This document shows positions 44,835 through 62,089 of a stretch of DNA of 64,000 bases, piece by piece. This DNA is from Acidobacteriota bacterium. GTDB lineage: Bacteria > Acidobacteriota > UBA6911 > RPQK01 > JAJDTT01. Every line of letters begins with the position of its first letter. The first letter of the stretch is position 1. The notes below the pieces were generated by a model. It saw nothing but the letters and a program-made list of their open reading frames with translations. It was not told the DNA's origin and did no database searches. The DNA lies in NCBI GenBank assembly GCA_965209055.1, contig OZ242374.1, positions 3,328,001 through 3,392,000 on the forward strand, in the 5' to 3' direction. The position numbers and the translations under genes are program-made.

Positions 44835-46100
44835 ATGATCACCTCCGTTTTTGCGATTCAATTCATGGCGTTGACATTCCTCCTGGCGTCTCTCCTGGTG
44901 GCGCCGCCGCTCGCGGCACAGGACTGGCCCGAGTTTCGCGGACCGACCGCCCAGGGACACTCGGATGCCGTCGGGCTGCCCCTGATCTGGAGCGAAGCCG
45001 GGAACGTCGCCTGGAAAGTCCCCATTCCCGGGCAGGGTTGGTCCTCGCCCGTCATGCGCGACGGCAAGATCTGGCTGACCACCGGGATTTCCCAGGAGGA
45101 CTCACCGCAGGCGCGCCACTCGCTTCGCGCCCTGGGGCTGGACTTCGATTCGGGCCGTCTCCTGCACGACGTCGAGGTCATCGCGCTGGAGGGTTCCCCC
45201 TCGCTGCACACCAAGAACTCGTCGGCGTCTCCGACGCCGATCCTGGAAGCGGACCGGGTCTACGTCCACTTCGGCGACTTCGGCACGGCGGCCCTCGACG
45301 CCCGGGGCAAGATTCTCTGGAAGAGCCGCAACCTGCGCTACGTGGAGCAGTACGGACCCGGGTCGACACCGGCCATCGCGGATGACCTGCTCCTGATCAG
45401 TTGCGACGGCACCGATACCCAGTTCGTCGCGGCGTTGGACAAGAACGACGGCACGGTGCGGTGGAAGACCTTGCGCGAGGACGGCGACATGGCCTATTCG
45501 ACGCCTCTGGTCATCGACGCCGCCGGTCGGCGTCAGGTCATCAGCACCGGTGGCAACGTGGCCGCCTCCTACGAACTGACGACCGGCAAGAAGCTCTGGT
45601 GGATCCGGTACATCGGTTTCTCCCAGGTTCCCCGGCCCCTCTTCGTCCACGGTCTGGTCTACCTGGTCAATCCCGCGCTGGGCAGGCCCGAGTTGTATGC
45701 CGTTCGGCCCGACGGCCGCGGCGACGTCACCCAGTCGCACGTGGTCTGGAAGTGGCAGCGCGGGGTTCCCATCACGCCCTCTCCCCTGATCGTCGGACGG
45801 GAGATCTACTTCGTCAGCGACGGAGGTGTCCTCACCTGCCTGGACGCGCGGGAAGGGACTCTCCACTGGCGGGAACGGCTGGGAGGGAACTTCTCCGCCT
45901 CTCCCGCCTTCGCCGACGGCAAGATCTTCCTTCTGGACGAGGACGGCAAGACGACGGTCATCAAGCCGGGACGGCGTTTCGACCAGTTGGCGGAAAACCA
46001 ATTGGACGGACAGACCCTGGCGTCCATGGCCATCGCCGGCCGGTCGCTCCTGATTCGCAGCGACACCCACCTGTATCGGATCGAAAAATCCGCCAGATAG
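44835..46100 (+). CDS. PQQ-like beta-propeller repeat protein (BamB-like)
   Basis: DWPEFRGP, GWSSPV, ASPTP, YSTP and FSASP motifs with Trp-docking repeats. Confidence 0.9.
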   Translation: MITSVFAIQFMALTFLLASLLVAPPLAAQDWPEFRGPTAQGHSDAVGLPLIWSEAGNVAWKVPIPGQGWSSPVMRDGKIWLTTGISQEDSPQARHSLRALGLDFDSGRLLHDVEVIALEGSPSLHTKNSSASPTPILEADRVYVHFGDFGTAALDARGKILWKSRNLRYVEQYGPGSTPAIADDLLLISCDGTDTQFVAALDKNDGTVRWKTLREDGDMAYSTPLVIDAAGRRQVISTGGNVAASYELTTGKKLWWIRYIGFSQVPRPLFVHGLVYLVNPALGRPELYAVRPDGRGDVTQSHVVWKWQRGVPITPSPLIVGREIYFVSDGGVLTCLDAREGTLHWRERLGGNFSASPAFADGKIFLLDEDGKTTVIKPGRRFDQLAENQLDGQTLASMAIAGRSLLIRSDTHLYRIEKSAR

Positions 46101-46383
46101 GAGCTTCCGGTTTCCTGCCGCCCACTGGAGGGGGGACTGTTAGTCCCAACTGTCCCTAAGTCAAAGACTACCGAACATTAACGTTTTCAATTATTTACCG
46201 GGTTCTTCGCCGAATCGGTAAAGTGGTTGACTCTCCATGTTTGACATGCTGAACAGGCAACAAACAGGCAGCCGAATCGGTTCCTGAAAGCCGACGCGCC
46301 CTTTTTCCCTCTTCCGTTGCCTGGCTCAGAGACATTATCGAATGGGCTTTGCCGACCGTTGGTCGTCACCGGAGGACTCTGCC

Positions 46384-46748
46384 TGAGGCCGAAGGTGTCT
46401 GACTTCGAATGGCTCGGCATTCCCAAGAATCGGCATCCCCGGCCAGTGTACTACGGCGCGGTGGGGAAGACCCGCCGCTACATGGCGTTCAAACTGCCGA
46501 TTGCCTTCGAGGCGACCCGGACCATCTTCGTCCGTGTCGATCCGGGGCACTCGACCGACCAGGGCCTGCTCAACTCCTACGGCGGGGTGACGGCCGCCTT
46601 GAAGCGGGCGGTCGAGTTGCAACCAGCGGCGGAAGGCCGCTCCTTCCAGGTCGTGATTGACGGTGAACGCACGTGGCAGTCGCAACGGCTGATGGAGGCT
46701 CGTTTCGGCAGTGCGAAAAGAGGGTCTCGCGCCCGCTCCGGGATGTGA
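46384..46748 (+). pseudogene. 5'-truncated relic of an uncharacterised ORF family ('orfX'), copy A
   Basis: FEWLGIP..HPRPVYYG..GKTRRYMAFKLPIA..RTIFVRVDPG aligns with 50057-50410. Its tail SYGGVTAALKRA aligns with 50830-50925(-). Confidence 0.6.
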
Positions 46749-46996
46749 ATGGGACAAAGGGGGTGGATTCACAAAAAGCGGTTCCGGTGACTCACAAATC
46801 CGTCTCCCCCGATCCTTTGTCGTTTCAATCAGTTACGGACCCATTTCCGGCCACCGGGTGGCCGCACGGGGAAAATGGAGGTGGACGGGAGCGACCCCCC
46901 CTTTTTGCCGCCCGGTGCGGGCGCGGGGGTGCTGCGCAATTCACATTTGCGCAGCACCCCCTGGGGGGGTCGCTCCCGTCTCAATTATCCTAGCGG
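46738..46996 (+). repeat. Structured repeat copy 1 (nested hairpins)
   Basis: Perfect 18-bp inverted repeat (46884-46901 / 46963-46980) enclosing a perfect 15-bp hairpin (46925-46961). Homologous to 49758-50025(-) and 50446-50724(+). Confidence 0.88.
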
Positions 46997-47444
46997 ACTG
47001 TTTCTATAAAGTCCGTAAACCATAATATATAAACGAGTTATGAAAATTCTACCACCGCTCTTCCCCCCATTCTTTCCACCGGGTTGAATTGGATGTCTTT
47101 GGCCCTTCGTGGCCGTGAACGGACGTACCCGTTCGGCCAAGCCGTGGAAGAGCGGTCGGTCGGCATCCTCGCCGCAGTGATCAGATCCTGTCGGGTTGCG
47201 GTCGTGCTTGAACCACTTTTCGCGGCGGAAAGACCTCCCTGGGAAAGGATAACGGCAGGTGATCGTCGGCCGCAAAGTCCTTACGCGGCACGCGATCCGA
47301 CCGCATCGTTCCGGACGCCATGGGTCACCTTATCCGCTCCGTGCCTCCACCCCGTCGGAGGTGGAAGAGTGGCGCTTCGTCAGATGCTCGCCCTCCATTG
47401 AGCGCGAGGCCGAAGGTCCGGCTCAGGAAGTCGATCCCCACGGC

Positions 47445-47630
47445 TTGACCGAACGGTTACGCGTTCAAGTCCTCCGTTGCGAAGACCCGGCGGCGTTGGC
47501 CAACGGCAGATGGAGTTGGCGGCAACGCTGGGCGATCGTTACGACCACACGAAGATCTCCCATGTGGAGAAGCGACACTAGGCACTGCTACTGGATGGGG
47601 CGGTTAAGGCAACGCGCGAGTTGAAGAAAA
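47445..47630 (+). pseudogene. Degenerate XRE-family HTH regulator
   Basis: QMELAATLGDRYDHTKISHVEKRH*ALLLDGAVKATREL with an internal TAG at 47579-47581. Confidence 0.55.
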
Positions 47631-48049
47631 TCGAGGAGGAGTGGCCGGGTCTCAACTACGGGCTGACGCGGGGCATCCTCATTGTCGAGCCATCCGCACC
47701 TTCGGTTCTCTCACTCACCCAGTAGGCGGCGCGGTACTTTCCACATCCCCCAGGGACTTTTCGTACCAATGCCTAGAGTTTTCTTCTCTTCACTTAGTGC
47801 GGCCTGGACTGTAACGGGGAGTTCCAACAGACTGACCGGGAGCATGAAGCGAAAGAACGAGTCACAGCTAGTGAGTGACAGTCGAGGACTTCTACCGGAG
47901 TTGCCTCCAAGCGCGGTTCGCGGGTTGGTAAGGGGACGGATCGCTGGTGGGAAAAAGCGTGCGCCTCTCTGAGATCATCTTACGGACGGAAAGGAAAAAG
48001 GGAACTATACAAGCCTGTTCGAGAACCAGATTGGACACAGGGGGAGAGA

Positions 48050-48958
48050 ATGACCACTGAGCTTAGACACCTAGAACCTGTCGATCTCCGAGAAGTTTGG
48101 CCTGACGAAAAGGTAGATTTCACTCCTTGGATCGCCGCCAACCTCGAAGTGCTGAGGAGTCCACTGGGAATGGAACTGATAGACCCGGTGCTGGAGCGGC
48201 CAGTCGGTCACTATCAGGCGGACATTGTTTGCAGGGAAGTCAAAACTAACGCCACGGTGGTGATTGAGAATCAACTGGAGCCGACTGATCATGATCATCT
48301 CGGCAAGCTCATCACCTACTCAGCGGGGTTGAAAGCTGACATCAGCATCTGGATTGCCAAGAAATTCAAACACGAACATCATGATGCGCTCCACTGGCTG
48401 AACAAGACCAACGGCGACAAGGATCAATTCTATGGCATCGAGGTCCACGTGCGGTCGAACGAAGATTCGTACGAACCGAAGTTTGTCAAAGTCGACCTCT
48501 CGAAACCCGCACGACGCCCACAGTCATCGCAAAAAAAACGTTACGAAGAATACGGGAGTGCTCTTAACACGTTTCTCAAGTCCAAATTCCCGGACGGACC
48601 GTGGAAGGGTATGACGGGGGGCAATATGGAATACACTGCAGGATACCCTGGGAAGAAATCTGGGGGGCCGTTTGGATTGACCGTAATGCCAAACAAGCCG
48701 GAGCACCGTGTGCGGGTAAAGGTATGGGGTCCAAAAGAGCATTTGCGCCGTCTCAAAAGGCGAGAGGAACTCAACAGGTTAGACGGCTTGAAGTGGGGAC
48801 CCCCAAAGAAGTCCGAGGGGAATTTCCACTGCACCCTTCCCGCTGATCCGAAAGAGAAGTCGGATTGGTGCCGGCAACACAAGTGGATCGCGGACTGTCT
48901 GAATAAAATGCATGAGGTATTCCTCCCACTCGTAAAAGAACTGATCCGTGGCGATTAG
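48050..48958 (+). CDS. DUF4268-type protein with N-terminal NucS-like PD-(D/E)xK nuclease domain
   Basis: VDLREVWPDE..DFTPW, ADIV..VVIENQL..TDHDHLGKLITY motifs. Confidence 0.8.
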   Translation: MTTELRHLEPVDLREVWPDEKVDFTPWIAANLEVLRSPLGMELIDPVLERPVGHYQADIVCREVKTNATVVIENQLEPTDHDHLGKLITYSAGLKADISIWIAKKFKHEHHDALHWLNKTNGDKDQFYGIEVHVRSNEDSYEPKFVKVDLSKPARRPQSSQKKRYEEYGSALNTFLKSKFPDGPWKGMTGGNMEYTAGYPGKKSGGPFGLTVMPNKPEHRVRVKVWGPKEHLRRLKRREELNRLDGLKWGPPKKSEGNFHCTLPADPKEKSDWCRQHKWIADCLNKMHEVFLPLVKELIRGD

Positions 48959-49013
48959 AGGAGGCGAAGATCCCGAGAATGGCTCACAGTCGCAACGGGC
49001 TTCCAGGGAAGTA

Positions 49014-49289
49014 CTATTTTCCAGTAATCACCCAGTCCAGGAACTTGTTGAGCAGGACCGCGAGGCTGGCGATCGTGATGCCAGCCTTCCACATCTTGGA
49101 CTCAAGAGCGGTGGTGGAAACCTGTAGGTCCGCTTTGACCTCGACAATCTCGGCCTTTACAGCGGCCACATCCTCCTTGGTGGCCAACTGGTCGCTGATC
49201 GGAATAGCACTAGCTGCGGCCCGAGCCTTTGACTCTGGCGCACCGGCAGCTACCAGCGCGTCATAGACTTCACTCACCATGACTCCCAT
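49014..49289 (-). CDS. Small coiled-coil membrane-anchored protein (DUF1640-like)
   Basis: EVYDALVAAGAPESKARAAA..LATKED, coiled coil, C-terminal TM, GGAGG RBS. Confidence 0.7.
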   Translation of the reverse strand: MGVMVSEVYDALVAAGAPESKARAAASAIPISDQLATKEDVAAVKAEIVEVKADLQVSTTALESKMWKAGITIASLAVLLNKFLDWVITGK

Positions 49290-49333
49290 GAGCTTTCCTC
49301 CAACTCAGCCCAGTTTACCTTCTCGCCGATAGA

Positions 49334-49731
49334 TCATGCAGCATCGGAAGGCCGTCCAGAGGTGCAGACCAGGACGAAATCTTCCCGGCGCTCAACGACT
49401 TCCAACACGGTGGCGGACCAAGTGCCCCGCCGGCGCGTCGGGGTTTCGATGTGGCACCCAGCCAAGTTCTTGGGGTGCTTGCCCGGGTTGCCCCGGTAGG
49501 ATGAACTCCAAAAGCCATACCCTTCATTTGTTCGGCCTGGACCGCGCGAAGCGGCGAGCGGACCCAGGCGCCGACGTTCACATTGCGTTCCGACTTCAGA
49601 CATTCCGGGGCTCTATCCAGATCGTCGTCAAGGCGGTATTCATCCTTCAAGCGTACCACAGTGGCACCTGTAGCCTGTGGTGGTACATAGATGATTTTGT
49701 CGTGGGGGAATTGGACGTCTTCGATGGCCAC
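49334..49731 (-). pseudogene. Hypothetical protein, probably frameshifted
   Basis: Protein-like N-terminus in one frame (MAIEDVQFP...GAWVRS) and protein-like C-terminus in another (GTWSATVLEVVER...). Confidence 0.4.
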
Positions 49732-49757
49732 AACCGGGCTTCAGGAATCTCCTCAGG

Positions 49758-50025
49758 GGCCTTCCCGCAGGGATCATTAGGACGGGAGCGACCCCCCCAG
49801 GGGGTGTTGCGCAGATGTAAATTGCGCCACACCCCCGTGCCCGCGCCGGGCAGCAAAACGGGGGGGTCGCTCCCGTCCACCTCCGCTTTCCCCGTGCGGG
49901 CGCGGCGAAGCCGGGAATGTGGCCGGAACTGCATGAGCGACAAAGAGATCGGGGAAATCGGAGGTGTAAGTCAAAAGGCTTCCGGGATGTAACTCGCGTC
50001 CTTTGTCTCCCTTACACCTCCCGAT
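49758..50025 (-). repeat. Structured repeat copy 2 (inverted relative to copy 1)
   Basis: 49781-49899 matches the reverse complement of 46862-46980 with about 11 mismatches. Weaker similarity continues to ~50025. Confidence 0.88.
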
Positions 50026-50056
50026 CGACACCGGGAAGCCCTTTCGCCTCCCCATG

Positions 50057-50410
50057 AACCTCGTCGATCCGCAGGTGACGCAGCTGTCGCAGGCGCTGCA
50101 GGCGCTGGGCCTTTCCCGGCGGCTGTTCCCGTGCCGCCACTATGCCGGCCATGCCCAGGGACGGAGCCGGTACTTCCCCCGCAAGCTCCCCCTGGCCCTG
50201 GAGGAGGACCGGGCGACCTTCGTCTATGTTGGTCCCGGCCGGGACACCGACTCGGAACTGCTCTCGTTGGGGGTGCGGAGCACGCCCGGCTCTGGACCGC
50301 GCTACGCGCACAAGACCATCCGGTTCACGTGGTCGCGGTGGCCCGCGACGACCTCCGCCGGGAGCGGGCCGGGAAGGTCCTGCGGCGCTGGGCCAGCCCG
50401 AGTCCCAAGG
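50057..50410 (+). pseudogene. 5'-truncated, frameshifted orfX relic, copy B
   Basis: LQALGLSRRLFPCRHYAG..GRSRYFPRKLPLALEEDRATFVYVGPG, then a frameshift to AEHARLWTALRAQ..VHVVAVAR. Confidence 0.6.
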
Positions 50411-50445
50411 CCGTGTTCCACCTCCGGGGGCCTGCCCGGCGAAGT

Positions 50446-50724
50446 CCCGGGATGTGAAACACACATGGGGGGGTGTGTTCCACTCTCGGAGCGGCGAGTG
50501 TTACACGCTCCCTTTCCGCCATCCTGTTGAGCCCCTTCGGTTTGTCCCCGCCCTCCGGGAGGAGGCGCGCCCGGACGGGGAGTCCGGGTAGGAGAAGTGA
50601 GCGACCCCCCTGTTTTCGTGCCTCGCACGTCACGCAGGCGCTGCCGGTGTTCCACTCCGTTGCACACCGGCGCGGCATGCGCGGGGGGGTCGCTCACTTC
50701 TTCATCGATCCCTGCGGGAAGGCC
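50446..50724 (+). repeat. Structured repeat copy 3 (divergent, structure conserved)
   Basis: Starts CCGGGATGTGAA like copy 1. Perfect 18-bp IR (50593-50610 / 50684-50701), inner hairpin 50643-50671, ends GATCCCTGCGGGAAGGCC like copy 2. Confidence 0.8.
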
Positions 50725-50829
50725 TCTGCGAAGATCGGGATAGGGAGAATTCCAGCCTGTCGTGAGAAAATGCGCCGCATGGGAGAGGACAACGGAAACT
50801 TGCAATGGGAGGCAAAGCAAGCGGCCAGG

Positions 50830-50925
50830 CGCTTGTCGATGGTCACCTCGACGGCGCGACCGGTTGCCAACGGTTCCAACCCGATCGCCCGCTTCAGCGC
50901 GGGCGTCACCCCGCCGTAGGAACCG
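50830..50925 (-). pseudogene. orfX C-terminal relic, copy C
   Basis: SYGGVTPALKRAIGLEP..GRAVEVTID, versus SYGGVTAALKRAVELQP..GRSFQVVID in copy A. Confidence 0.6.
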
Positions 50926-51209
50926 AGCCGCGTGTGCTGGATCGCTGACGGAAACGCGAGGAACCTCCACTGGGTGGTGCAGAGTTCGCAGACCACAAAA
51001 CGGACTGCGCCCGTTGGTAGGAATCCCCGCTCCGGCAACGCCTCGCGGTGGATCCTGGACGATGTCCAATGGCCTATCCCCAACCCTTGGTCCGGCCTCG
51101 CCAAGCCAACACAGGCCATATGTTGCGGTCCGGATTATGTGGCGGACAGTCCGTATCATCCTGCTGCACGTGAGAACACACCGTATCTCAGCAACATAAT
51201 CTCCTTCAC

Positions 51210-52205
51210 TCAGAGCGCGGCCAGGAAGGCGATCAGTCCCGTGTTTGTCCTCCACGGGCGATCCGAACCGGGCTCGGCGGCATCGCAGAGCGCCATGGCC
51301 CTGGCCTTCATCTCCAGGTCGATCTCGGCGTAGATGTTGGTCGTATCGAGGCTGGCATGACCGAGCCAAGCGCGGATCGTGTTCAGATCGATGCCGGCCT
51401 GGAGCAGGTGGCAGGCGCTGGTGTGACGGATGGTGTGCGGCGTGACCCTCCTTCCGGCGAGCAACGGGACGCGGGCTGCAGAGCGCTCGACGAGCCGATA
51501 GACCCCGAACCGGGTATAGGACCTGCGCTGCCGGCTGAGGAAGACGGCATCCCCGGCTGCCCGTCCCTGCAAGAGTTCCGTGAGCGCGGCTTCGGTCCGG
51601 GGCCACAGCGGACACTGTCGGTGTTTTCCGCCCTTGCCGTGGATGTTGACGAGCGCTTGCCCGCCGCCGCGTCGTCCGATTTGCAGATCGCCCGCCACGA
51701 GCTGAGTCGTTTCGGAGACGCGTGCCCCGGTGTTGTAGAGGAACAGGAGCAGGGCGTGTTCGACCCGGCCTCTCGGCGTTCGCCGGTCCGGGACCTCGAG
51801 CAGTTCCTTCATCTCGGTCTTGCTGAGCCAGCCGATCGGCTTCGGCGCGGCCTTCTTCGAGGCAATCGCACGGATACTGCCGCTCCACTCGATACGTCCG
51901 GGATCGCGGCTGGCGATGAAGCGTGCGAAGGCCCGGATCGCCGATAGCCGCTGGTTGCGGGTCTGCACGGAGCAACCGCGGTCCTGCTCGAGATAGTCGA
52001 GGAACTGGCGCACGTGCCGGGCCGTGAGGTCCTGCACCGCGATCCGTTCGACTGGCTTGCGGGCCTTGGCGCCGACGAACGGCAGCAGGAGTGCGAAGGT
52101 ATCGCGGTAGCTCTTCTGAGTGTTGCGGGCGAGGTTGCGCTCGGTGACGATGTAATCGGCCAGGAAGCGGCGCAGCCAGGGGCCGAGCGTGCGGGGATTA
52201 CTCAT
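51210..52205 (-). CDS. Tyrosine recombinase RitC
   Basis: TGARVSE, GKGGK, HTIRH and LGHASLDTTNIY motifs. Confidence 0.93.
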   Translation of the reverse strand: MSNPRTLGPWLRRFLADYIVTERNLARNTQKSYRDTFALLLPFVGAKARKPVERIAVQDLTARHVRQFLDYLEQDRGCSVQTRNQRLSAIRAFARFIASRDPGRIEWSGSIRAIASKKAAPKPIGWLSKTEMKELLEVPDRRTPRGRVEHALLLFLYNTGARVSETTQLVAGDLQIGRRGGGQALVNIHGKGGKHRQCPLWPRTEAALTELLQGRAAGDAVFLSRQRRSYTRFGVYRLVERSAARVPLLAGRRVTPHTIRHTSACHLLQAGIDLNTIRAWLGHASLDTTNIYAEIDLEMKARAMALCDAAEPGSDRPWRTNTGLIAFLAAL

Positions 52206-53151
52206 GGTTTCCTCCTCCGTTGACGTAGGCGTCGAAACGGACCGAAGCCTGATGCAGGAGTTCGGGCGTCATCGACAGATAGATCCGGGTGCCGTTGAGA
52301 TCCGTGTGGCCGAGCCAGGTGGATAGCGTCGGCAGCAGTCGCTGGACATCGGCGCCCTGCCGGTACCAGGACTCCAGCCGGTGTACGGCTGCGGCATGGC
52401 GCAGGGAATGAAAGCACGGACCTCGCCGTCCGTCGTTGCGACCTTCGATTCCGGCCTCCTTGAGCAGCTTGGTGAACGCGTGCGCGGCGGTGCTCTGGGC
52501 CAAGGGCGTCCCGTCGCGGTTGGCGAGGAAGGTCGAGGCCGTGCCCTTGGGGAAGGGGCGTTGTGCGCGCCGGGCGGCATAGGTCTTCAGCGCGTCGGCA
52601 AGTTGCCGGCAGACGGGAACGAGGCGGGTCTTGTAGAACTTGGTGTGACGTATGGTCAGCAGCGCATCGGGCAGGTCCACATCGTCGAGGGTCAGGCGCT
52701 GGGCCTCGCCGAATCGCAGCCCCGCACCGTAGAGAAGCTGGAGCAGTGTCCGCAGGGTATCGGCGTCGATCTGGATCGAACGTTGCCGACTGACATCGAT
52801 GGCGTCGAACAGGCGTTGCAACTCGTTGCGGGAGTACACGTAAGGTGGTGAGGACCGCGGTCGAGTCGGCTCTTCATCGCGCGCCGGAAGCGGCGACCGG
52901 GTCACGTAGCTGCGGCTGATCGCGTAGCGGTAGAAGCCGGCCAGGACGCTGTACTTGTTGGCCCGGTACCGGGTTATCGGACCTTGACCGGCAAGGAAGT
53001 CGAGAACGTGGGCTGGGGAGACGGCATCACAGCCGGCGCTCCCGCCGACCTGTTTCAGGAACCGGTGCAACAAGTATGCGCCGGTGTCGAACTTGGCGCC
53101 ATGGGCCTGACGCCAGGCGATATAGTCGTTGACCGCATCCCGGAGCATCAT
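52198..53151 (-). CDS. Tyrosine recombinase RitB
   Basis: GLRFGE, TKFYKTRLVP, HSLRH and LSTWLGH..TRIYL motifs. Confidence 0.93.
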   Translation of the reverse strand: MMLRDAVNDYIAWRQAHGAKFDTGAYLLHRFLKQVGGSAGCDAVSPAHVLDFLAGQGPITRYRANKYSVLAGFYRYAISRSYVTRSPLPARDEEPTRPRSSPPYVYSRNELQRLFDAIDVSRQRSIQIDADTLRTLLQLLYGAGLRFGEAQRLTLDDVDLPDALLTIRHTKFYKTRLVPVCRQLADALKTYAARRAQRPFPKGTASTFLANRDGTPLAQSTAAHAFTKLLKEAGIEGRNDGRRGPCFHSLRHAAAVHRLESWYRQGADVQRLLPTLSTWLGHTDLNGTRIYLSMTPELLHQASVRFDAYVNGGGNHE

Positions 53152-54380
53152 GTCAGGCCCTCAAGATCGATGTCGGCGACCTCACGGAGGGTGCTGAGGT
53201 TCACCTTGGCGTACACGGCGGTGGACGAGGTGCTGCGATGGCCGAGGTAATCGCCGACCTCCTTGATCGACAGGCCGTGGTCGAGCAGGTGCTGGGCGGC
53301 AGCATGACGAAGCGCATGGGCACCGCGACGTTTGCCGGTGATACCGAGCTGATCGAGGCGTGTCCTGACGACGTTCGAAACTGTCTGCCGGGTCACCGGA
53401 CGGATCGGAGCGATCAGAGTGAGGAACAGTGCCCTCTCCGGGCGCAAGGCACGAACCTCGGTGAGGTAACGCACGATCGACTGCCCGACGCCGCGGGAAA
53501 GCGGATAATGATGGGGGCATCCCGACTTGGGGCGGCGTACCCGTAGCGTCTCCTCTTCCCAGTCCAGATCATCGAGGAGCAGGCCGGCGACCTCGCGGGC
53601 ACGCAACCCGTACGCGATCAGCACCATCAGGATGGCACGGTCGCGAAGGTCGGCCGGCCGGTTGCCCTCGGAGGTTGCGAGCAGGCGGAGCACCTCGCCC
53701 CGGTTGAGTCCCTTCGGGAGTGTCTCGCCGGGATGGAACCGCACCGGCATGATCCCGTCAGCCAGCCCCAGTGTACACCAGCCCTGGCGTTCGGCGAACC
53801 GGGAAAAAGTGCGCAGACGCTGCCCGTAAACGCGGACCGTGCTCCGACTGCAGCCACGGGCGTGCCAGCGCATGACCGCCCGGTCGATGTCGGCGACAAC
53901 GACCGCATCCAAGGCAATGCCCCACTCGCCGAGCTAGTCGAAGAAGCAGTCCATCGTATGGCAGCAAGTACGGATCGTCACCTCGGACCATCCGCGCTCT
54001 TTGCGCATCCACTCCTTGAAGATCGTGGCCTCGGCGACGTGGGCGTGCCGTTGCCGCACCCTACAGGGCTCATCGAGCAGACCCGCGAAGCGTAGCCATC
54101 GCACTGCGCGGCTGACGAAGATCCGGCGCACCCCCGGTCGCGCCGAACGACACGGTCGACGGTCGGTCGCCGCCTCGATCCGGGGCAGGCTGACGCGCTC
54201 GCCTGCCCGCAAGTCCAGAAGACGAATCAGGGTGATCTGAGCCGCTGCGATCGTGCGTAATGTGAGCGGTCGCGCGCCCTCCTGCGCGCAATGCCTCAGG
54301 TAGCTCAACCGTTCTTCCAACAACGGTTCGCAGCGATAACGGCCTATCGTGCCGCGGTCGATGAACAGGGCCTCGAACAT
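53148..54380 (-). pseudogene. Tyrosine recombinase RitA interrupted by one in-frame TAG
   Basis: ORFs 53934-54380 and 53148-53912 share a frame: FFD*LGEWGIALD. GLRARE, HALRH and LGH..TAVY are intact. Confidence 0.88.
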
Positions 54381-54522
54381 GATCGTGCCTCCTTGTGGGG
54401 TGAAGACATGATTATGGTCGAACGACTTCCCGTCAGATAATTATGTTGCTGAGATACGGCGTGTTCTCATGTGCAGCAGGACGATGCAGACTGTCCGCCA
54501 CATAATCCGGACCGCAACATAT

Positions 54523-54554
54523 GGCCTGTTATGTGGCACTCAACATAACAGGCC
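54523..54554. other. Perfect 12-8-12 palindrome at the RIT end (candidate recombination site)
   Basis: GGCCTGTTATGT-GGCACTCA-ACATAACAGGCC. Confidence 0.7.
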
Positions 54555-54674
54555 AAATGGCGGGCTTGTTTTTTCGGTAGTTCTCGATGATTGCGCCTGA
54601 GTGGGTTTCAGGCGGCATATCGGCGGACCATGGCTCCGCGCAGGACTTCAAGCTGGCGCTCTACGCAAGGCGGA

Positions 54675-55898
54675 TCAACGGAGCCGGACGGACGCCCGAG
54701 GCCGACTCTCGTCGGCCAGATAGCCCGCCCAGTTGTCCATGAGACGCCTCCGCCGCTCGAACAGGTCCGTCCTCCGGTAGGCCGCCTCGACCGGATTGCG
54801 CACCTTGTGCGCCAAAGCCGCCTCCGCCACCTCGCGCGGATGTTCCGTCTCCTCCGCCACCCAGTCCCGGAAACTCGACCGGAACCCGTGCGGCACCGCC
54901 GCGATCTTCAACCCCCGCAGCAGGTCCGACATGGCCGTATACCCGATGGGCTTTCCACCCACCCCCGGAAAAACGAGTGGGCTGCCGCCAGCGAGCGCCC
55001 GCGCCTCCTCCAGGATCTCCAACGCTCGCCGGGCCAACGGAACGCGGTGCTCCCGATTCACCTTCGTCCGTGGGGCCGGGATGGCCCATACTCCTTCCTC
55101 CCGGTCGATCTCCTTCCACGCGGCCCCACGGACCTCGCCGGAGCGTGTCGCCGTCAGGACCAGGAACTCGAACATCAGCTTCAACATCGGCCGCTTGTTC
55201 GATGCCCGCACCGTCTGGAGTGCGGACGCCACTTCACCGTGAGGCAACGCCCGCATGTGACGCACGGCGGTCCCCTGCGAGCCGAGTACCGGACCGATCC
55301 GGTCGCAGGGGTTGTCGGGCCGAAGATCCATCGCCACGGCCCACTCCAGAACCGCGCGGATGCGCTGGCGCAGCTTCCGGGCCGTGGCGGCCTTCTCGTG
55401 CCAGATCGGAGCCAGGATTCCGATCACGTCCGCGCTCGTCACCTGCGCAATCGGTATCTTCCCGATATGAGGCAAGACGTAGCGCTCCAGGCTCCACAGC
55501 CAGAGCCGCGCATGCCGGGGGGAGCGCCAGCCCGGCCGCAGCTGCTTCCAGACCGCCCCAGCGGCGTCCGCGAAGCTGGGCATCGACTCGGCCCGCCGGT
55601 TCGCGGCCCGGGGGTCGCCCCCGTCGCGGGCCAGCTTCCGGTTGGCGAATGCTTTCTCGCGCGCTTCCTTGAGCGAGACGAGGGGGAATCCACCGAGCCC
55701 GAGCTCGGTTCGCCGGCCCCGGATGGTGAGGCGCTGGATCCAGCCCCGGCTCCCTGTAGGCCGGACGTAGAGGTAGAGGCCGTGGCCGTCGCAGTATCGT
55801 CCGGACTGGCTCACGTTGCGGACAAAGGCCGGGGTCAGGGCATTGAGGGGATGCGGCCCGCGCGGCTTGCGTTTGGGAGGTTGTTTCGGGAATCTCAT
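54675..55898 (-). CDS. P4-like tyrosine integrase with arm-binding domain
   Basis: DGHGLYLYV...LGLGGFPLVSLKEAR N-domain, TATRSGE, HGFRSSFRDW, LAH and AAYRR motifs. Confidence 0.95.
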   Translation of the reverse strand: MRFPKQPPKRKPRGPHPLNALTPAFVRNVSQSGRYCDGHGLYLYVRPTGSRGWIQRLTIRGRRTELGLGGFPLVSLKEAREKAFANRKLARDGGDPRAANRRAESMPSFADAAGAVWKQLRPGWRSPRHARLWLWSLERYVLPHIGKIPIAQVTSADVIGILAPIWHEKAATARKLRQRIRAVLEWAVAMDLRPDNPCDRIGPVLGSQGTAVRHMRALPHGEVASALQTVRASNKRPMLKLMFEFLVLTATRSGEVRGAAWKEIDREEGVWAIPAPRTKVNREHRVPLARRALEILEEARALAGGSPLVFPGVGGKPIGYTAMSDLLRGLKIAAVPHGFRSSFRDWVAEETEHPREVAEAALAHKVRNPVEAAYRRTDLFERRRRLMDNWAGYLADESRPRASVRLR

Positions 55899-56357
55899 AC
55901 CTACCACTATATATACCACAATATGGTGGATGCAAGGGGATGAAGCGGGTCGGTATGGGACAAGGTCGGATGTCCGATCTAGTTGTAAACCAATCATAAA
56001 CAAACACTTATGGACAATACTGGACTTACCTGGACGATGCACCTGATTAAATCTAGGCTTCCTAGCGGGAAGGCTCCAATAGGGCTACTCTGGCAATCTG
56101 TGTAGTCAATCCTCTATGAGCCAGCGCAGGCCATCGGTCTTGCCGATCTGGGGTGGAAAGTGGATCTGGTTGAACGCTCGATCCGGAATGGGAACCAGGA
56201 CCTCGTCGAAGCGCTGGAGCAGAACGCCGATAGACAAGTGAGACTATTTGACCTTGCCGTTCGGTAACGAATTGCAAAAGGTCCAAGTGATACTCCACCT
56301 TGCTCCGGTCGGCCAAATTGGCCAAGATTGACGTTTGCCATCAACTGTAGGAGTGGC

Positions 56358-56542
56358 ATGCGGAAGCCGAGCGCGAAAGACGCGAAGTACGGCTTCGGCC
56401 GACGCATCGGCCTCGCCCGCGCCGCGCCCGTCACGGTGACCAAGCACGGGCGGTTATCGTGGCGCTCTTGGTCGAGGAATACGAGCGCCTGAAGGCGCTT
56501 GACACACCTGAGGCACGCTCGGGAACGGAGGAACGGGAATGA
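56358..56542 (+). pseudogene. Frameshifted Phd/YefM antitoxin upstream of hsdR
   Basis: AGGAG RBS. MRKPSAKDAKYGFGRRIGLARAAPVTVTKHGR, then a shifted frame [17 protein letters not shown]. Confidence 0.75.
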
Positions 56543-56573
56543 CGTGGAACAGAACGGGAGGCCGCTGAGCCGG

Positions 56574-58898
56574 ATGGACAAGCGAGGCCTCTCAGAGCGT
56601 GACATCTGCACGAAGTTCATCACGCCCGCTCTGCGCAACGCCGGGTGGGACGAGATGTTGCAGATTCGCGAAGAGGTGAGCTTCACCCAGGGCCGGATCA
56701 TCGTGCGGGGCAAGCTGGTCGCACGCGGCAAGGGGAAACGCGCCGACTACATCCTTTATCTCAAGCCAAACATCCCGATCGCCGTGATCGAGGCGAAGGA
56801 CAATTCCCACAGCCTCGGCGACGGCATGCAGCAGGCTCTGGATTACGCCGAGATCCTGAACGTTCCCTTCGCGTTCTCTTCGAACGGCGACGGCTTCGTG
56901 TTCCACGACCGTACGGGGGCCAGTACACCGCTTGAGTCGGACCTTTCTCTTGAAGACTTTCCGTCACCCGCCGATCTGTGGGCGCGCTATCGGGCCTGGA
57001 AGGGCCTGACGCCGGAAGCCGAGGAGATCGTCCTTCAAGACTATTTCGAAGACGGCAGCGGCAAGACGCCGCGCTACTACCAAGTCAATGCCATCAACGC
57101 GACAATCGAGGCCATCGCCAAGGGGCAGAACCGTATCCTGCTCGTCATGGCCACGGGCACGGGCAAGACCTATACCGCCTTCCAGATCATCTGGAGGCTA
57201 TGGAAGGCGCGCCGCAAGAGACGCATCCTGTTTCTCGCCGACCGCAACGTGCTCGTCGATCAGACGATGACGAACGATTTCCGCCCGTTCGGCGGCACAA
57301 TGACCAAGCTCTCGCGCCGGATCGACCCGGCGTACGAGGTCTATCTCGGCCTCTATCAGGCAATCACCGGACCGGAGGAACGCCAGAAGACGTACCGAAA
57401 GTTCTCACCGGAGTTCTTCGATCTGATCGTGATCGACGAATGTCACCGGGGCAGTGCTGCCGACGATTCGGCGTGGCGCGAGATCCTTGAGTACTTCTCT
57501 GCCGCAACCCAGATCGGTCTCACCGCCACGCCGAAGGAGACGAAGTACGTCTCCAACATCGCCTATTTCGGGGAGCCGGTCTTCACTTACTCCTTGAAGC
57601 AGGGCATCAACGACGGTTTCCTCGCGCCCTACAAGGTGGTCAAGGTCCATATCGATCGGGACGTGGAGGGCTACCGCCCAGAGAAGGGAAAGGTCGACCG
57701 CGTCGGCGAGCCAGTTGAGGATCGCGTTTACAACTTGATGGACTTCGACCGAACTCTGGTCATCGACGAACGGACGACACTCGTCGCGCAGAAGGTCACG
57801 GCTTTCCTGAAGGAGAGTGGCGATCGTTTCCAGAAGGCGATCATCTTTTGCGTCGATCAAGAGCACGCCGCGCGGATGCGTCAGGCGCTGATCAACGAGA
57901 ACGCGGATCTCGTCGAGGGCAACTCACGTTACGTCATGCGGATCACCGGTGGAGATACTTTGGGACAGGCCGAACTCGGGAACTTCATCGATCCGGAATC
58001 GAAATACCCCGTCCTGGTCACCACATCGCGCCTGCTGTCCACCGGCGTCGACGTCCAGACTTGCCGGTTGATCGTGCTCGACCGAGCAGTGGGGTCGATG
58101 ACCGAGTTCAAGCAGATCGTCGGCCGCGGTACCCGCGTGCACGAAGACACACGAAAGTTCTACTTCACGCTCATCGACTTCCGGGGGGCCACGGGTCATT
58201 TCGCGGACCCGGACTTCGACGGCGAGCCGGTCCAGATTTACAGGCCGGAGGAAGACGGTCCGATCGCGCCACCCGATGGGCCGGATCCCGGCCCGAACGG
58301 GAACGGCGACGTAGATCCACCGCCGGGGCCACAGAAGAAAATCTATGTCGATGGCGTCGAAGTGGCCATCGTCGCTGCCCGGGTGCAATACCTCGACGGG
58401 CACGGCAAGCTGGTGACGGAGTCGTTGCGTGATTTCACGAGGAAAGCCCTGCGCCGGCGCTTCGCGAGCCTTGACGACTTCCTGAACCGTTGGAACGCCG
58501 CAGAGCGCAAGCAGGCAATCATTGATGAGATGGAGGCCGAGGGCCTGCCGCTGACCGTGATCGCCGAAGAGTTGGGCAAGGATCTCGACCCCTTCGATCT
58601 CGTCTGTCACATCGCCTTTGACGCCAAACCGCTGACCCGCCGCGAGCGGGCCGAGAATGTCAAGAAGCGGGACGTGTTCGCGAAATACGGAGGTCAGGCC
58701 CGCGCTGTGCTCGATGCGTTGCTCGACAAGTACGCGGACGAGGGCATTCTCAATCTCGACGACGCCAACGTCCTTAGAATCCCGCCACTCGACCGACTCG
58801 GTACACCGTTGGAACTGGTCCGCGCCTTTGGCGGGAAGCCCGGTTTCGAGCGGGCCGTGCACGATGTTCAATCCGCCCTCTATCGCGAGATCGCCTAA
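56574..58898 (+). CDS. hsdR: Type I restriction endonuclease subunit R (EcoAI/EcoEI-like, type IB)
   Basis: [22 protein letters not shown] nuclease, [20 protein letters not shown] and QIVGRGTR motifs. Confidence 0.95.
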
Positions 58899-58901
58899 GA
58901 G

Positions 58902-60353
58902 ATGTCCGTCAGCACGCTCGTCAAGTCGATTCAGAACATCATGCGCCAGGACGTGGGCGTCGATGGCGATGCGCAGCGCATCAGTCAACTGTGCTGGATG
59001 TTCTTCCTCAAGATCATCGACGATCAGGACCAGGAGCTCGAAGTTCTAAAGGACGGATACCGTTCGCCCGTACCTGACCCATTGCAATGGCGGAGTTGGG
59101 CCGGCGACCCGGAAGGCATCACAGGCGAGGAGTTGCTCGACTTCGTCAACGGCGATCTCTTTCCGAAGCTGAAGGAACTTCCGCGCAGGGCCGGCCCTCG
59201 CGCCAGCGTCGTGCGCGACGTGTTCGAGGACGCCTACAACTACATGAAGTCCGGCCCGCTGCTGCGGCAGGTTGTCAACAAGATCAACGGAATCGACTTC
59301 AACAACCTGACCGACCGGCGGCACTTCGGCGATATCTACGAGCAAGTCTTGAACGATCTGCAATCGGCCGGCAATGCGGGCGAATACTACACGCCACGCG
59401 CCGTGACCTCGTTCATGGCCCAAATGATCGACCCGAAACCGGGCGAGACCCTGCTCGATCCGGCGTGCGGCACTGGCGGGTTCCTCACCTGCGCCATCCG
59501 TCATATGCACGAACGCTACGTGAAGCGGACCGAAGATGAGGCAAGGATGCAGGCCTCCCTGCGGGCCATGGAGAAGAAGCCACTCCCCCACATGCTCGCC
59601 GTCACGAATATGCTCCTGCACGGCATCGAAGATCCGTCGTTTCTGCGCCACGACAACACACTGGCGCGCCCCTACATCTCTTGGGGCCGGGACGACCGCG
59701 TGGACATCGTGTTGACCAATCCGCCGTTCGGTGGCAAGGAGGAGGACGGCATCGAATCGAACTTCCCGAAGCACTTCCAGACGCGCGAGACGGCTGACCT
59801 GTTTCTCGCCCTGATCGTCCGACTTCTGAAACCCGGCGGCAGGGCTGCCGTGGTCCTACCCGACGGCTCCTTGTTCGGCGAGGGTGTCAAGACGCGGCTC
59901 AAAGAGCACTTGATGAGGGAATGCAACCTTCACACCATTGTGCGCCTGCCGAACTCGGTGTTCTGTCCCTACGCTTCGATCGGGACGAACTTGCTGTTCT
60001 TCGAGAAAGGCGAACCGACCAAGGATGTCTGGTTCTGGGAACACCTCGTACCTGAGGGCCAAAAGGCCTATTCAAAGACCAGACCCATCCGGCTGGAGCA
60101 TCTTGAGGACTGTGCCGCTTGGTGGGGCGGGGCGGAACGTAAGAGCCGCGAGGAAGGTGAACGAGCTTGGAAGGTGACTGCCGAGGAGATCGCTACGCGC
60201 GGCTACAACCTCGACATCAAGAATCCTCATACCGAAGAAGAGGACCTTGGCGATCCCGAGATGCTACTGGAGGAGCTGACGCGTGCCGAGGCCGAGGTGA
60301 ACTCAGTGCGAGACCAGTTGAAGGGAATCCTGACAGAGGCGCTGTCACGGTGA
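58902..60353 (+). CDS. hsdM: Type I RM N6-adenine methyltransferase subunit M
   Basis: GEYYTPR, DPACGTGGFL and NPPF motifs. Confidence 0.96.
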   Translation: MSVSTLVKSIQNIMRQDVGVDGDAQRISQLCWMFFLKIIDDQDQELEVLKDGYRSPVPDPLQWRSWAGDPEGITGEELLDFVNGDLFPKLKELPRRAGPRASVVRDVFEDAYNYMKSGPLLRQVVNKINGIDFNNLTDRRHFGDIYEQVLNDLQSAGNAGEYYTPRAVTSFMAQMIDPKPGETLLDPACGTGGFLTCAIRHMHERYVKRTEDEARMQASLRAMEKKPLPHMLAVTNMLLHGIEDPSFLRHDNTLARPYISWGRDDRVDIVLTNPPFGGKEEDGIESNFPKHFQTRETADLFLALIVRLLKPGGRAAVVLPDGSLFGEGVKTRLKEHLMRECNLHTIVRLPNSVFCPYASIGTNLLFFEKGEPTKDVWFWEHLVPEGQKAYSKTRPIRLEHLEDCAAWWGGAERKSREEGERAWKVTAEEIATRGYNLDIKNPHTEEEDLGDPEMLLEELTRAEAEVNSVRDQLKGILTEALSR

Positions 60354-62089
60354 ATGCTGACCGCCTATTCGCCCTATACGACCGCGTAGCCGAGGCACCG
60401 GACGCCATTGGACGTCTGCGCCGCTTCGTGCTGGATCTCGCCTTGCGGGGAAAGCTTGTGGAGCAGGATCCGGCAGATGAACCGGCATTGGGACTGCTGA
60501 ACCGGATTGATGAGGCGAATGATCCACTGGCAGGATTCAACCGGGCTAAAAAATCACGAGCACTACCACCGATAAACCCGAGGGAGGTCCCTTTCGAGTT
60601 ACCATCAGCCTGGCAATGGGTGTATTTCGGGAACATCGTCGATTTTTCCGCAGGCCGGACGCCCCCACGGAAAGAACCATCGTATTGGAATACCGGTGAT
60701 TTCCCATGGATCAGCATCGCCGACATGGAGGACGGAAAGACCCTTCGATCTACGAAGGAGACTGTGAGCACCGAGGCCCGTCTCAACGTCTTTAAGCGTG
60801 AGCCGGAGCCACCCGGCACAATGATCATGAGCTTTAAGCTCACAATTGGAAAGATCGCCAAGCTGGGCATCTCCGCGTTTCATAACGAGGCAATTATTTC
60901 CATTCGGCCACATGTCGGTGACCTAAACTCCTACCTATTCAAGGTTCTACCTGATCTTGCACGGGGCGCCAATACCAAAGGAGCAATCAAGGGCGCAACG
61001 CTTAACCGTAAGTCACTTTTGACCATAATGGTCCCGCTCCCGCCTCTCGCTGAGCAGTGCCGCATCGTTGCCAAGGTCGATGAACTCTTGGCGGTTTGCG
61101 ACCAGTTGGAGAAAGCACGCACCGCGCGGGAGGACACCCGCGACCGGCTCACCAAGGCCAGTCTTACCCGTCTAGTTGCTCCCGACATCGACGCCCCGAC
61201 GTTTCGTTCTCACGCGCGCTTTGCCGTCGATGCCCTGCCCGCACTGACCGCTCGTGCCGATCAGATCAGGCATCTACGCCAGACGATTCTTGGCCTCGCC
61301 GTGCGGGGGAAGCTGGTGGAGCAGAATCCGGCGGACGAACCGGCGGACGAAATACTGGAACGGATCGCGGCAGAAAAGGTACGACTGTTGAGGGCACGAA
61401 AGATCAGGAGACACAAATCAACTGCATCGTTGTCACGAATAGAATCGGATTTTGGACTACCGAGTGGTTGGGCGGCAGCAAGGTTCTCGGATGTCGTGAC
61501 TGAGTTACGAACCGGACCCTTCGGCAGCTCCCTTCACCGGAGTGACTATGAAAAAGGCGGAACACCCGTCATCAATCCTGCATCAATACAGGATGGGAAG
61601 ATTGTTCCTTTCGAGAATATGGCGATAGGGGACGATACTCTTGAGAGACTCGCAACGTTCAAACTCCGCGCCGGTGACATCGTGATGGGCCGTCGTGGCG
61701 AAATGGGACGCTGCGCGGTGGTAGAACAGAGCGAGGAAGGTTGGCTCTGTGGGACGGGAAGCCTGATTCTCCGTCTTTCGAATAGCCTCTATCCAAAATA
61801 CCTAGCAATGCTCATCGGATCGCCCAATTTTCGGGAAAATCTTCGAGGTCATTCTGTCGGCGCTACAATGCAGAATCTGAATCAGTCCATTCTGTTGAAG
61901 ATGAGCATTGGTCTACCACCGCTCGCCGAGCAGTACCGCATCGTTGCCAAGGTCGATGAGTTCCTAGCGCTCTGCGACCGCCTAGAGGCCCGTATCACTA
62001 CCACAGATGGCACCCGCCATCGTCTCCTCGGAGCCCTTCTGCATAATGTGCTGGCATCAAACACGAAGCCGCGTCCTCTTGGAGGCTAA
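60350..62089 (+). CDS. hsdS: Type I RM specificity subunit S
   Basis: GTGA overlap with hsdM. Two TRDs, each followed by LPPLAEQ.RIVAKVDE. Repeated LA.RGKLVEQ.PADEPA. Confidence 0.93.
   Translation: MNADRLFALYDRVAEAPDAIGRLRRFVLDLALRGKLVEQDPADEPALGLLNRIDEANDPLAGFNRAKKSRALPPINPREVPFELPSAWQWVYFGNIVDFSAGRTPPRKEPSYWNTGDFPWISIADMEDGKTLRSTKETVSTEARLNVFKREPEPPGTMIMSFKLTIGKIAKLGISAFHNEAIISIRPHVGDLNSYLFKVLPDLARGANTKGAIKGATLNRKSLLTIMVPLPPLAEQCRIVAKVDELLAVCDQLEKARTAREDTRDRLTKASLTRLVAPDIDAPTFRSHARFAVDALPALTARADQIRHLRQTILGLAVRGKLVEQNPADEPADEILERIAAEKVRLLRARKIRRHKSTASLSRIESDFGLPSGWAAARFSDVVTELRTGPFGSSLHRSDYEKGGTPVINPASIQDGKIVPFENMAIGDDTLERLATFKLRAGDIVMGRRGEMGRCAVVEQSEEGWLCGTGSLILRLSNSLYPKYLAMLIGSPNFRENLRGHSVGATMQNLNQSILLKMSIGLPPLAEQYRIVAKVDEFLALCDRLEARITTTDGTRHRLLGALLHNVLASNTKPRPLGG

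Follow-up and report, generated by a model that had tools for sequence, protein, structure and literature searches.

The closest described systems to the element reported here are the MOBC conjugation systems, known from TraX and oriT2 of pAD1 and from MobC of CloDF13. The origin of transfer (oriT) oriT2 of pAD1 contains an inverted repeat of about 140 bp. MOBC relaxases consist of a winged helix-turn-helix (HTH) domain and a PD-(D/E)XK domain, and TraX of pAD1, which has a winged HTH, binds direct repeats 70-120 bp from nic, according to a 2025 review (PMC12857230). We analyzed a 64,000-nucleotide (nt) stretch of an Acidobacteriota genome (contig OZ242374.1; hereafter, the window), which carries three copies of a structured repeat, here called the unit, next to remnants of a protein gene, orfX. 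We propose with moderate confidence that the unit is a candidate oriT-like DNA site of a family of integrative and conjugative elements (ICEs), that it is recognized by OrfX, a MOBC-like but unclassified protein, and that it has been amplified as orphan copies and is used as an attachment site. The oriT would most likely be one so far undescribed in these mobile elements. To our knowledge, conjugation in Acidobacteriota and Gemmatimonadota is almost unstudied, and a literature search on the subject returned nothing specific.

The locus resembles the MOBC systems as these are described in two sources. OrfX is predicted to combine a winged helix at its N terminus with a C-terminal domain that may have a restriction-endonuclease-like fold, its gene adjoins the gene of a VirD4-type coupling protein, and the unit combines a large inverted repeat with distant short repeats that would set specificity (PMC12857230, PMC5704250). 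It differs from them in that OrfX has no match to the MOBC family PF13814, has a weak profile-profile link to that family, and does not conserve PD and E. Furthermore, the MOBC oriT has five tandem direct repeats, whereas the unit has four boxes, of which one is inverted and one lies in a hairpin loop. The hosts of orfX also differ from those of known MOBC systems, being ICEs of Acidobacteriota and Gemmatimonadota with Trb-like type IV secretion system (T4SS) genes.

Other folded DNA elements were also compared. The sso, ssi, and Frpo elements of plasmids are orientation-specific, heavily folded single-stranded DNA (ssDNA) elements of 150-300 nt. The unit is like them in size, orientation, and folding; however, it has no accompanying rolling-circle Rep protein (PF02486 is absent from the genome) and is tied to orfX and a T4SS rather than to a replicon. 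Repetitive extragenic palindromes (REP), bacterial interspersed mosaic elements (BIME), and palindromes like miniature inverted-repeat transposable elements (MITEs) share its high copy number and strong hairpins, but the unit is much longer, is always linked to orfX sequence, is kept across phyla in operons, and has neither terminal inverted repeats nor target duplications at its ends.

Structure of the unit

The unit is about 260 nt long, and the same element in the conjugation gene clusters of several phyla spans about 300 bases. The count of three copies given by the first-pass annotation of this DNA holds for the window but not for the 6.08-Mb genome, where blastn with the three copies found 76 loci, 62 of them near full length (at least 200 nt). 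These fall into subfamilies c1, c2, and c3, each with one copy in the window (Table 1), plus about ten diverged copies that align in the 3' domain only. Copies 1 and 3 begin with CCGGGATGTGAA, and copies 2 and 3 end with GATCCCTGCGGGAAGGCC, as had been reported. Copy 1 is incomplete at its 3' tail, where an inserted element splits it from the remaining tail. The outer stems of all three copies are perfect over 18-19 bp. The reported compensation in this stem was confirmed, with two positions per arm changed in copy 3 relative to copies 1 and 2 and pairing retained, and the inner hairpin of copy 3 likewise differs in sequence and remains paired.

Copies 1 and 3 folded as RNA with z scores of -6.6 and -5.6, respectively, and none of 200 shuffled sequences folded as stably. 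A MAFFT alignment of 77 units gave a consensus of 59 pairs, in which 82.3% of cells were paired, compared to 39-48% when the partners were slid. Cells changed on both sides numbered 404 (90-211 with partners slid), and the covariation score was 0.261 (0.05-0.10 with partners slid), a value reached by none of 500 shuffles. These controls support the earlier claim of selection on structure. Within this genome G:U pairs were far more frequent than A:C, although the copies there are not independent events, and modules exchanged between subfamilies may account for part of the within-genome "compensatory change" in place of separate changes.

The covariation was not evenly placed. The base of the outer stem covaries (CG in 42 units and UA in 18 at one pair), as does the tail mini-hairpin (CG in 47 and UA in 20), but the top nine pairs of the outer stem are practically invariant across phyla, suggestive of sequence-specific recognition. 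G:T pairs exceeded A:C pairs in the inner 3' hairpins (108 versus 40), which favors the sense strand. An all-against-all scan of column covariation was dominated by clade structure and was not used. An IncP-like nic motif (ATCCTG-like) was also considered in the tail; ATCC[CT]?TG was present in only 9 of 80 downstream regions, and the idea was dropped because the tail is better described as a covarying mini-hairpin.

No known RNA family accounts for the unit, as had been stated: an Rfam scan of the whole window gave no matches at the gathering thresholds, and at E <= 1 the region 46100-47100 gave three chance-level matches only (E 0.046-0.96), far under gathering. TnpB/omega RNA, IS110 bridge RNA, retrons, group II introns, and integron attC sites were set aside, as the scanned open reading frames (ORFs) had no matching protein domain.

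Box motifs and the winged helix

Each unit has four copies of a box of 6-8 nt. The one near the 5' end is inverted, two in direct orientation lie in the 5' domain, and the fourth occupies the apical loop of the inner 3' hairpin. Lineages differ in the motif, with TTCACA, TTACA, GTGTT, TGCGCAC, TGTGCAC, and GGACAC types. The longest word common to box 2 and the loop of the same unit averaged 6.97 nt, compared to 4.60 nt for shuffled pairings (maximum 5.04); for boxes 2 and 3 the averages were 7.0 and 4.74 nt. The box type tracks the winged-helix sequence of OrfX, including its recognition helix, such that TGCGCAC occurs with THHERARRLV, TTCAC with AHPEQxRRxVH, and TGTGCAC with IDRWQALRFVRA. Five mosaic loci (L062, L076, L077, L091, and L093) have lost the complementarity of box 1. 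In L062, L077, and L093 the winged helix is still matched to boxes 2-4; L076 and L091 show drift in the loop box.

Conjugative context in this and other genomes

A covariance model of the 3' domain (R1) was built from 67 copies of this genome and searched over 80 orfX loci from metagenome-assembled genomes of Acidobacteriota, Gemmatimonadota, and Gammaproteobacteria. All 80 loci had a match downstream of orfX on its strand, the weakest at E 6e-4. The 3' domain began 155-172 nt past the orfX stop codon in 77 loci, with outliers at 98, 193, and 256 nt. The noncoding RNA partnered with orfX that the first-pass annotation had offered is thus borne out as to the partnership; its RNA part is weighed below. 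VirB8 (71 loci) and TrbL (61 loci) were encoded upstream of orfX, and a type IV coupling protein (T4CP; 40 loci) and VirB11 (55 loci) downstream. In other phyla there is a single copy of the unit, which lies within a T4SS operon.

The genome of the window has one complete T4SS cluster, which contains one intact orfX paralogue. The order is AAA_25/CHC2 protein, TrbC, VirB4, TrbG, TrbI, TrbL, VirB8, orfX, unit, T4CP, and VirB11-like ATPase. Here and in related loci the unit lies between orfX and the T4CP gene, the position expected of an oriT if OrfX is the relaxase, and its 18-bp stem and four co-varying boxes correspond to the inverted repeat and protein-binding repeats of an oriT. An origin or oriT is the best fit among the functions offered earlier, because the unit lies in a T4SS cluster beside the T4CP gene, the architecture of OrfX is MOBC-like, and the boxes track the winged helix.

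The OrfX protein

Intact OrfX has about 310 amino acids (aa). Three intact paralogues had no Pfam match at E <= 1, and there was no NCBIfam match. At least 3,534 database proteins are relatives, and those with a source name are all annotated as hypothetical. A fusion to VirB8 occurs in at least one of the relatives (P0081). A tblastn search of 72,556 plasmids with OrfX gave no match, and matches in a protein atlas were to unnamed Acidobacteriota clusters only.

The full-length AlphaFold (AF2) model (predicted local distance difference test, pLDDT, 87.6) has an N-terminal MarR-like winged helix. Residues 1-90 gave MarR-like structural matches with Z scores of 6-7.4, the best to 3s2w. The C-terminal domain modeled alone (pLDDT 89.5) had mostly PD-(D/E)XK-type nucleases among its top 20 structural neighbors, including NucS (Z 7.2), SdaI (6.8), and AF1548 (6.7), along with Can2, BstEII, AgeI, N.BspD6I, BglII, and FokI. 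The predicted domain order is that of a MOBC relaxase. The conserved residues of true MOBC proteins, read from an alignment of PF13814 proteins, are H, PD, E-x-D, and K. In OrfX the conserved D110, E114, H115, and K160 could be a putative variant site. Seven relaxase families (PF03432, PF13814, PF08751, PF03389, PF07514, PF01076, and PF02486) had no matches in the genome.

Possible mechanism and significance

If the unit is an oriT-like site, each of the four boxes would be a binding site for the winged helix of OrfX. The 18-bp stem, which is conserved, would extrude or refold as a hairpin on the orfX-sense strand. This hairpin would position processing near its own base or near the tail, and the T4CP encoded immediately downstream would deliver the DNA to the T4SS. 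The module of orfX remnant and unit has been amplified in dozens of islands of this genome, and these orphan copies could be mobilized in trans only, if at all.

A bolder form of this proposal is offered tentatively, as it is less likely than not. OrfX and the unit would be an unrecognized relaxase/oriT pair, distantly derived from the restriction-endonuclease-like MOBC class and divergent in its catalysis, that drives the conjugation of a large ICE family in Acidobacteriota, Gemmatimonadota, and sponge-associated bacteria. With dozens of oriT copies in the chromosome, one ICE could then mobilize many islands or chromosome segments, and a second class of integrase elements would have specialized on the oriT tail as a target that gets them transported. 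The T4SS clusters here have no recognizable relaxase, and the candidate pair, with at least 3,534 database proteins, would fill that gap. If true, this would improve MOB typing of environmental genomes and give a possible mobilization route for defense islands. Layered hitchhiking of this kind among mobile elements, with dozens of orphan copies in one chromosome and integrase elements directed at the site, would also be unusual.

Contrary evidence and alternative explanations

Several observations weigh against the unit as an oriT served by OrfX. PF13814 (Replic_Relax, MOBC) matches neither OrfX nor anything else in the genome; the same search detects the family in 22 of 301 genomes of the phylum. 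An hhalign comparison of OrfX with 11 true PF13814 proteins of the same phylum was weak (probability 2.4%, E 0.019), with 186 collinear columns in the expected register, and in that register OrfX has other residues at the MOBC-invariant PD and E, D176 being its one residue aligned with an invariant acid. Structural similarity of the C-terminal domain is middling (Z only 5-7.2; best Foldseek E 0.038). The association of boxes with the winged helix has shared descent as a confounder, and L092, L101, and L055 are exceptions to it. The excess of G:T over A:C is clear in the inner 3' hairpins only and is reversed in the helix of boxes 1 and 2 (13 versus 37). For most copies of the c1 type, this genome has no intact cognate orfX. 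Finally, a T4CP ORF of about 675 aa begins exactly 12 nt past the GGAAG of the tail in 59 of 80 loci, so the tail may serve in ribosome binding and the unit may act as an RNA leader.

The alternative that survives best, although we consider it unlikely, is that the unit is a structured intercistronic RNA leader, co-transcribed with orfX, that controls translation or stability of the T4CP mRNA. In that case the ribosome-binding site would be hidden by the tail hairpin, and alternate pairing of box 1 with box 2, 3, or 4 would form a switch. Besides the 12-nt spacing, such a leader would explain why the unit sits within a co-oriented row of genes, why it folds strongly and covaries, why G:T exceeds A:C on the sense strand of the inner hairpins, and why box 1 is complementary to the other three boxes. 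It would not explain why the top of the outer stem is invariant in sequence rather than covarying, or why mosaic loci without pairing of boxes 1 and 2 still match the winged helix to boxes 2-4. The excess of A:C over G:T in the helix of boxes 1 and 2 also speaks against RNA, as does the lack of an Rfam match. Moreover, the 12-nt spacing is absent from the Acidobacteriota loci and from the copies of this genome, about 75 of which have no T4CP gene following.

A double-stranded operator or promoter, with OrfX as a transcription factor on the boxes and the hairpins incidental or acting as an attenuator, is more doubtful still. The MarR-like winged helix, the repeated boxes that co-vary with it, and the variable cargo genes that begin just downstream of many copies would fit this explanation. 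However, no sigma-70-like promoter or terminator pattern was found on the plus strand of 46050-47150 (the sole terminator-like match, at 46110-46093 on the minus strand, is outside the unit). An operator has no need of a conserved 12-bp inverted repeat with its arms about 85 nt apart and paired inner hairpins between, and the nuclease-like domain and fixed place beside the T4CP gene would be unexplained.

It is very improbable that the unit is chiefly a recombination or transposition module (attachment site, transposon end, or MITE-like element) spread by its own recombinase independently of conjugation: its 76 copies, the proven-looking integrase target in the tail, the island terminus with unique flanks described below, and inverted c2/c3 pairs at 8 loci speak for it, but the attL and attR repeats involve only the tail of about 15 nt and leave the other approximately 245 nt unexplained, the recurring classes of right flank place the unit inside larger elements, none of the ORFs scanned near the three copies of the window matched a Pfam transposase, OrfX had no Pfam match, and the unit is single-copy in T4SS operons of other phyla.

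The repeat family and its islands

Every unit in the genome sits downstream of orfX or a decayed orfX. The number of other genomic copies covering a region was 62 at the 3' domain, 41-47 at the unit start, about 33 at the end of orfX, and 12 farther upstream. Intact orfX paralogues (307-317 aa) are present at three loci (L031, L032, and L033). OrfX1, the remnant upstream of copy 1, had no Pfam or NCBIfam matches.

The left terminus of the copy-1 island, LE, has 31 genomic copies by blastn, all with different outer flanks. A downstream unit lies within 8 kb of 28 of these, which makes the elements 841-6318 bp long. To the right of the unit, in contrast to the outer side of LE, the flanks are not unique and fall into about seven recurring classes; therefore, the unit is internal to larger elements. 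The transposon end suggested by the first-pass annotation was thus not upheld as stated, yet the tail of the unit is itself a target of integrase elements. An ssDNA transposon with hairpin ends of the IS200/IS605 type was rejected, since OrfX and its neighbors had no Pfam transposase domain and the right flanks recur rather than being unique. A MITE was rejected because the LE end and the unit end differ, the length in between ranges from 841 to 6318 bp, and the unit lies inside its element.

These islands are like integrative mobilizable elements or orphan oriT islands, which, as described in PMC5704250, have a transfer-origin-like site and restriction-modification (RM) cargo without a T4SS and therefore depend on a helper element (PMC5704250). 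Unlike those, there are dozens of unit copies per chromosome, many with only a decayed protein gene, and their mobilization is putative.

Table 1. Positions of the unit copies and neighboring features in the window.
Feature	Position	Strand	Remarks
LE, left terminus of copy-1 island	46127..46303	+	Opens with small hairpin GGGAC-loop-GTCCC
orfX1	46317..46748	+	143 aa; internally deleted remnant of the ~310-aa family, without winged helix (tblastn against L031, L032, L033)
Unit copy 1	46738-46996	+	Subfamily c1; tail cut at 46996
Box 1 (TGTGAAT), inverted	46744..46750	+	
Box 2 (ATTCACA)	46767..46773	+	
Box 3 (ACTCACA)	46790..46796	+	
Copy 1, 3' Y-shaped domain	46884..46980	+	18-bp outer stem 46884-46901/46963-46980
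Copy 1, small hairpin in 3' domain	46911-46921	+	
Copy 1, inner hairpin in 3' domain	46925-46939/46947-46961	+	
Box 4 (ATTCACA)	46939-46945	+	In inner-hairpin loop
attL	46988..46996	+	Left half of copy 1 tail mini-hairpin; core CCTAGCGG
Z, integrative element (~9.06 kb)	46997..56060	.	Carries copies 2 and 3, recombinase trio, and P4-like integrase
Segment of 338 bp	47124-47461		Between 24-nt inverted repeats
Z cargo ORF	48050-48958	+	Lower GC content
Z cargo ORF	49014-49289	-	Lower GC content
Z cargo ORF	49315-49731	-	Lower GC content
Unit copy 2	49758-50010	-	Subfamily c2; next on the minus strand are ORFs 49731-49315 and 49289-49014
Copy 2, outer stem	49780-49798/49860-49878		
orfX3	50003..50457	+	orfX remnant, frameshifted and truncated at the N terminus; lies between copies 2 and 3
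Unit copy 3	50447-50724	+	Subfamily c3; outer stem, inner hairpin, and boxes changed (GTGTT type)
Copy 3, outer stem	50593-50610/50684-50701		
orfX4	50694..51119	-	orfX remnant, 141 aa
Recombinase trio	51111-54547		ORFs 51210-52205, 52198-53151, 53148-53912, 53934-54380, all -
P4-like tyrosine integrase of Z	54675..56042	-	Arm-DNA-bind_3, Phage_int_M, and Phage_integrase domains
attR	56061..56075	+	Displaced right half of copy 1 tail (CCTAGCGGGAAGGC)
Type I RM cargo of copy-1 LE island (hsdR, hsdM, hsdS)	56499..62089	+	Downstream of copy 1 once the insert is removed

The type I RM system exists in three near-identical copies, each behind a module of LE, orfX, and unit, and the homology of the RM copies stops inside the target-recognition region of hsdS. 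The hairpin at the LE terminus (46127-46150 and the 30 other LE copies) reads GGGACTGTTAGTCCC or GGGACTAACAGTCCC, with the loop in either orientation, and further variants also occur; with its two loop orientations it resembles a recombinase core site. The arrangement of a reversed c2 unit, a truncated orfX, and a c3 unit seen at 49758-50724 recurs at 7 further genomic loci, and the c2/c3 inverted repeat extends about 11 nt past GGCC on either side.

Insertion of element Z into the tail of copy 1

Copy 1 ends ...ATCCTAGCGG|ACTGTTTC at 46996/46997. The remainder of its tail begins at 56061, 18 nt past the start of the P4-like integrase gene, and is followed by the flank seen in two uninterrupted paralogues. 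The split tail and the repeated core therefore mark 46997-56060 as an inserted element, Z, and two paralogous loci are without it. A contig of run X1 joins 46990 to 56066 as in the Z-less paralogues, and the joint bears the letters of the paralogue; contigs over 45500-57500 gave no Z excision product separable from the paralogous copies.

The attL and attR cores were present in all three Z elements examined, namely this one and two others with the same ends. The mini-hairpin of the tail reads TCC(C/T)T-N-(G/A)GGAAGG, and the direct-repeat core CC(C)T-N-GCGG flanks the 9-kb insert. At the DNA level the genome has 15-18 copies of the P4-like integrase gene, and a tail-like motif was found about 20 nt upstream of the integrase start in 5 of 10 copies examined. 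As judged from the sequence, the tail mini-hairpin is the attachment site of P4-like integrase elements, one of which splits copy 1. Z is like P4-type integrase islands and tandem accretion in having a tyrosine integrase at one end and short direct repeats flanking it. Z differs from those islands in its target, which is a conserved hairpin in the candidate oriT of another mobile element instead of a tRNA gene, and Z would therefore ride along with that element.

The other half of the ten integrase copies have a different conserved upstream region. In loci of other genomes (L042, L044 at about 5225-5233, and L074), the unit tail is broken after ...ACGG or ...CCGG by unrelated sequence (ACTGCCT..., TATTTC...), which suggests that tail-targeted insertions may occur outside this genome too.

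Within Z, the three tandem tyrosine recombinases form a recombinase-in-trio element, of which the genome has no second DNA copy. In contigs of runs X1 and X8, position 51110 is joined directly to 54548 and the intervening 3437 bases are missing, so the trio looks like a discrete insertion. The three cargo ORFs lie in a stretch of lower GC content (50-57%) and matched no Pfam family above the curated threshold. Other genomic copies, and one contig, have the 338-bp segment inverted at the corresponding position; it may be invertible or a small inserted element.

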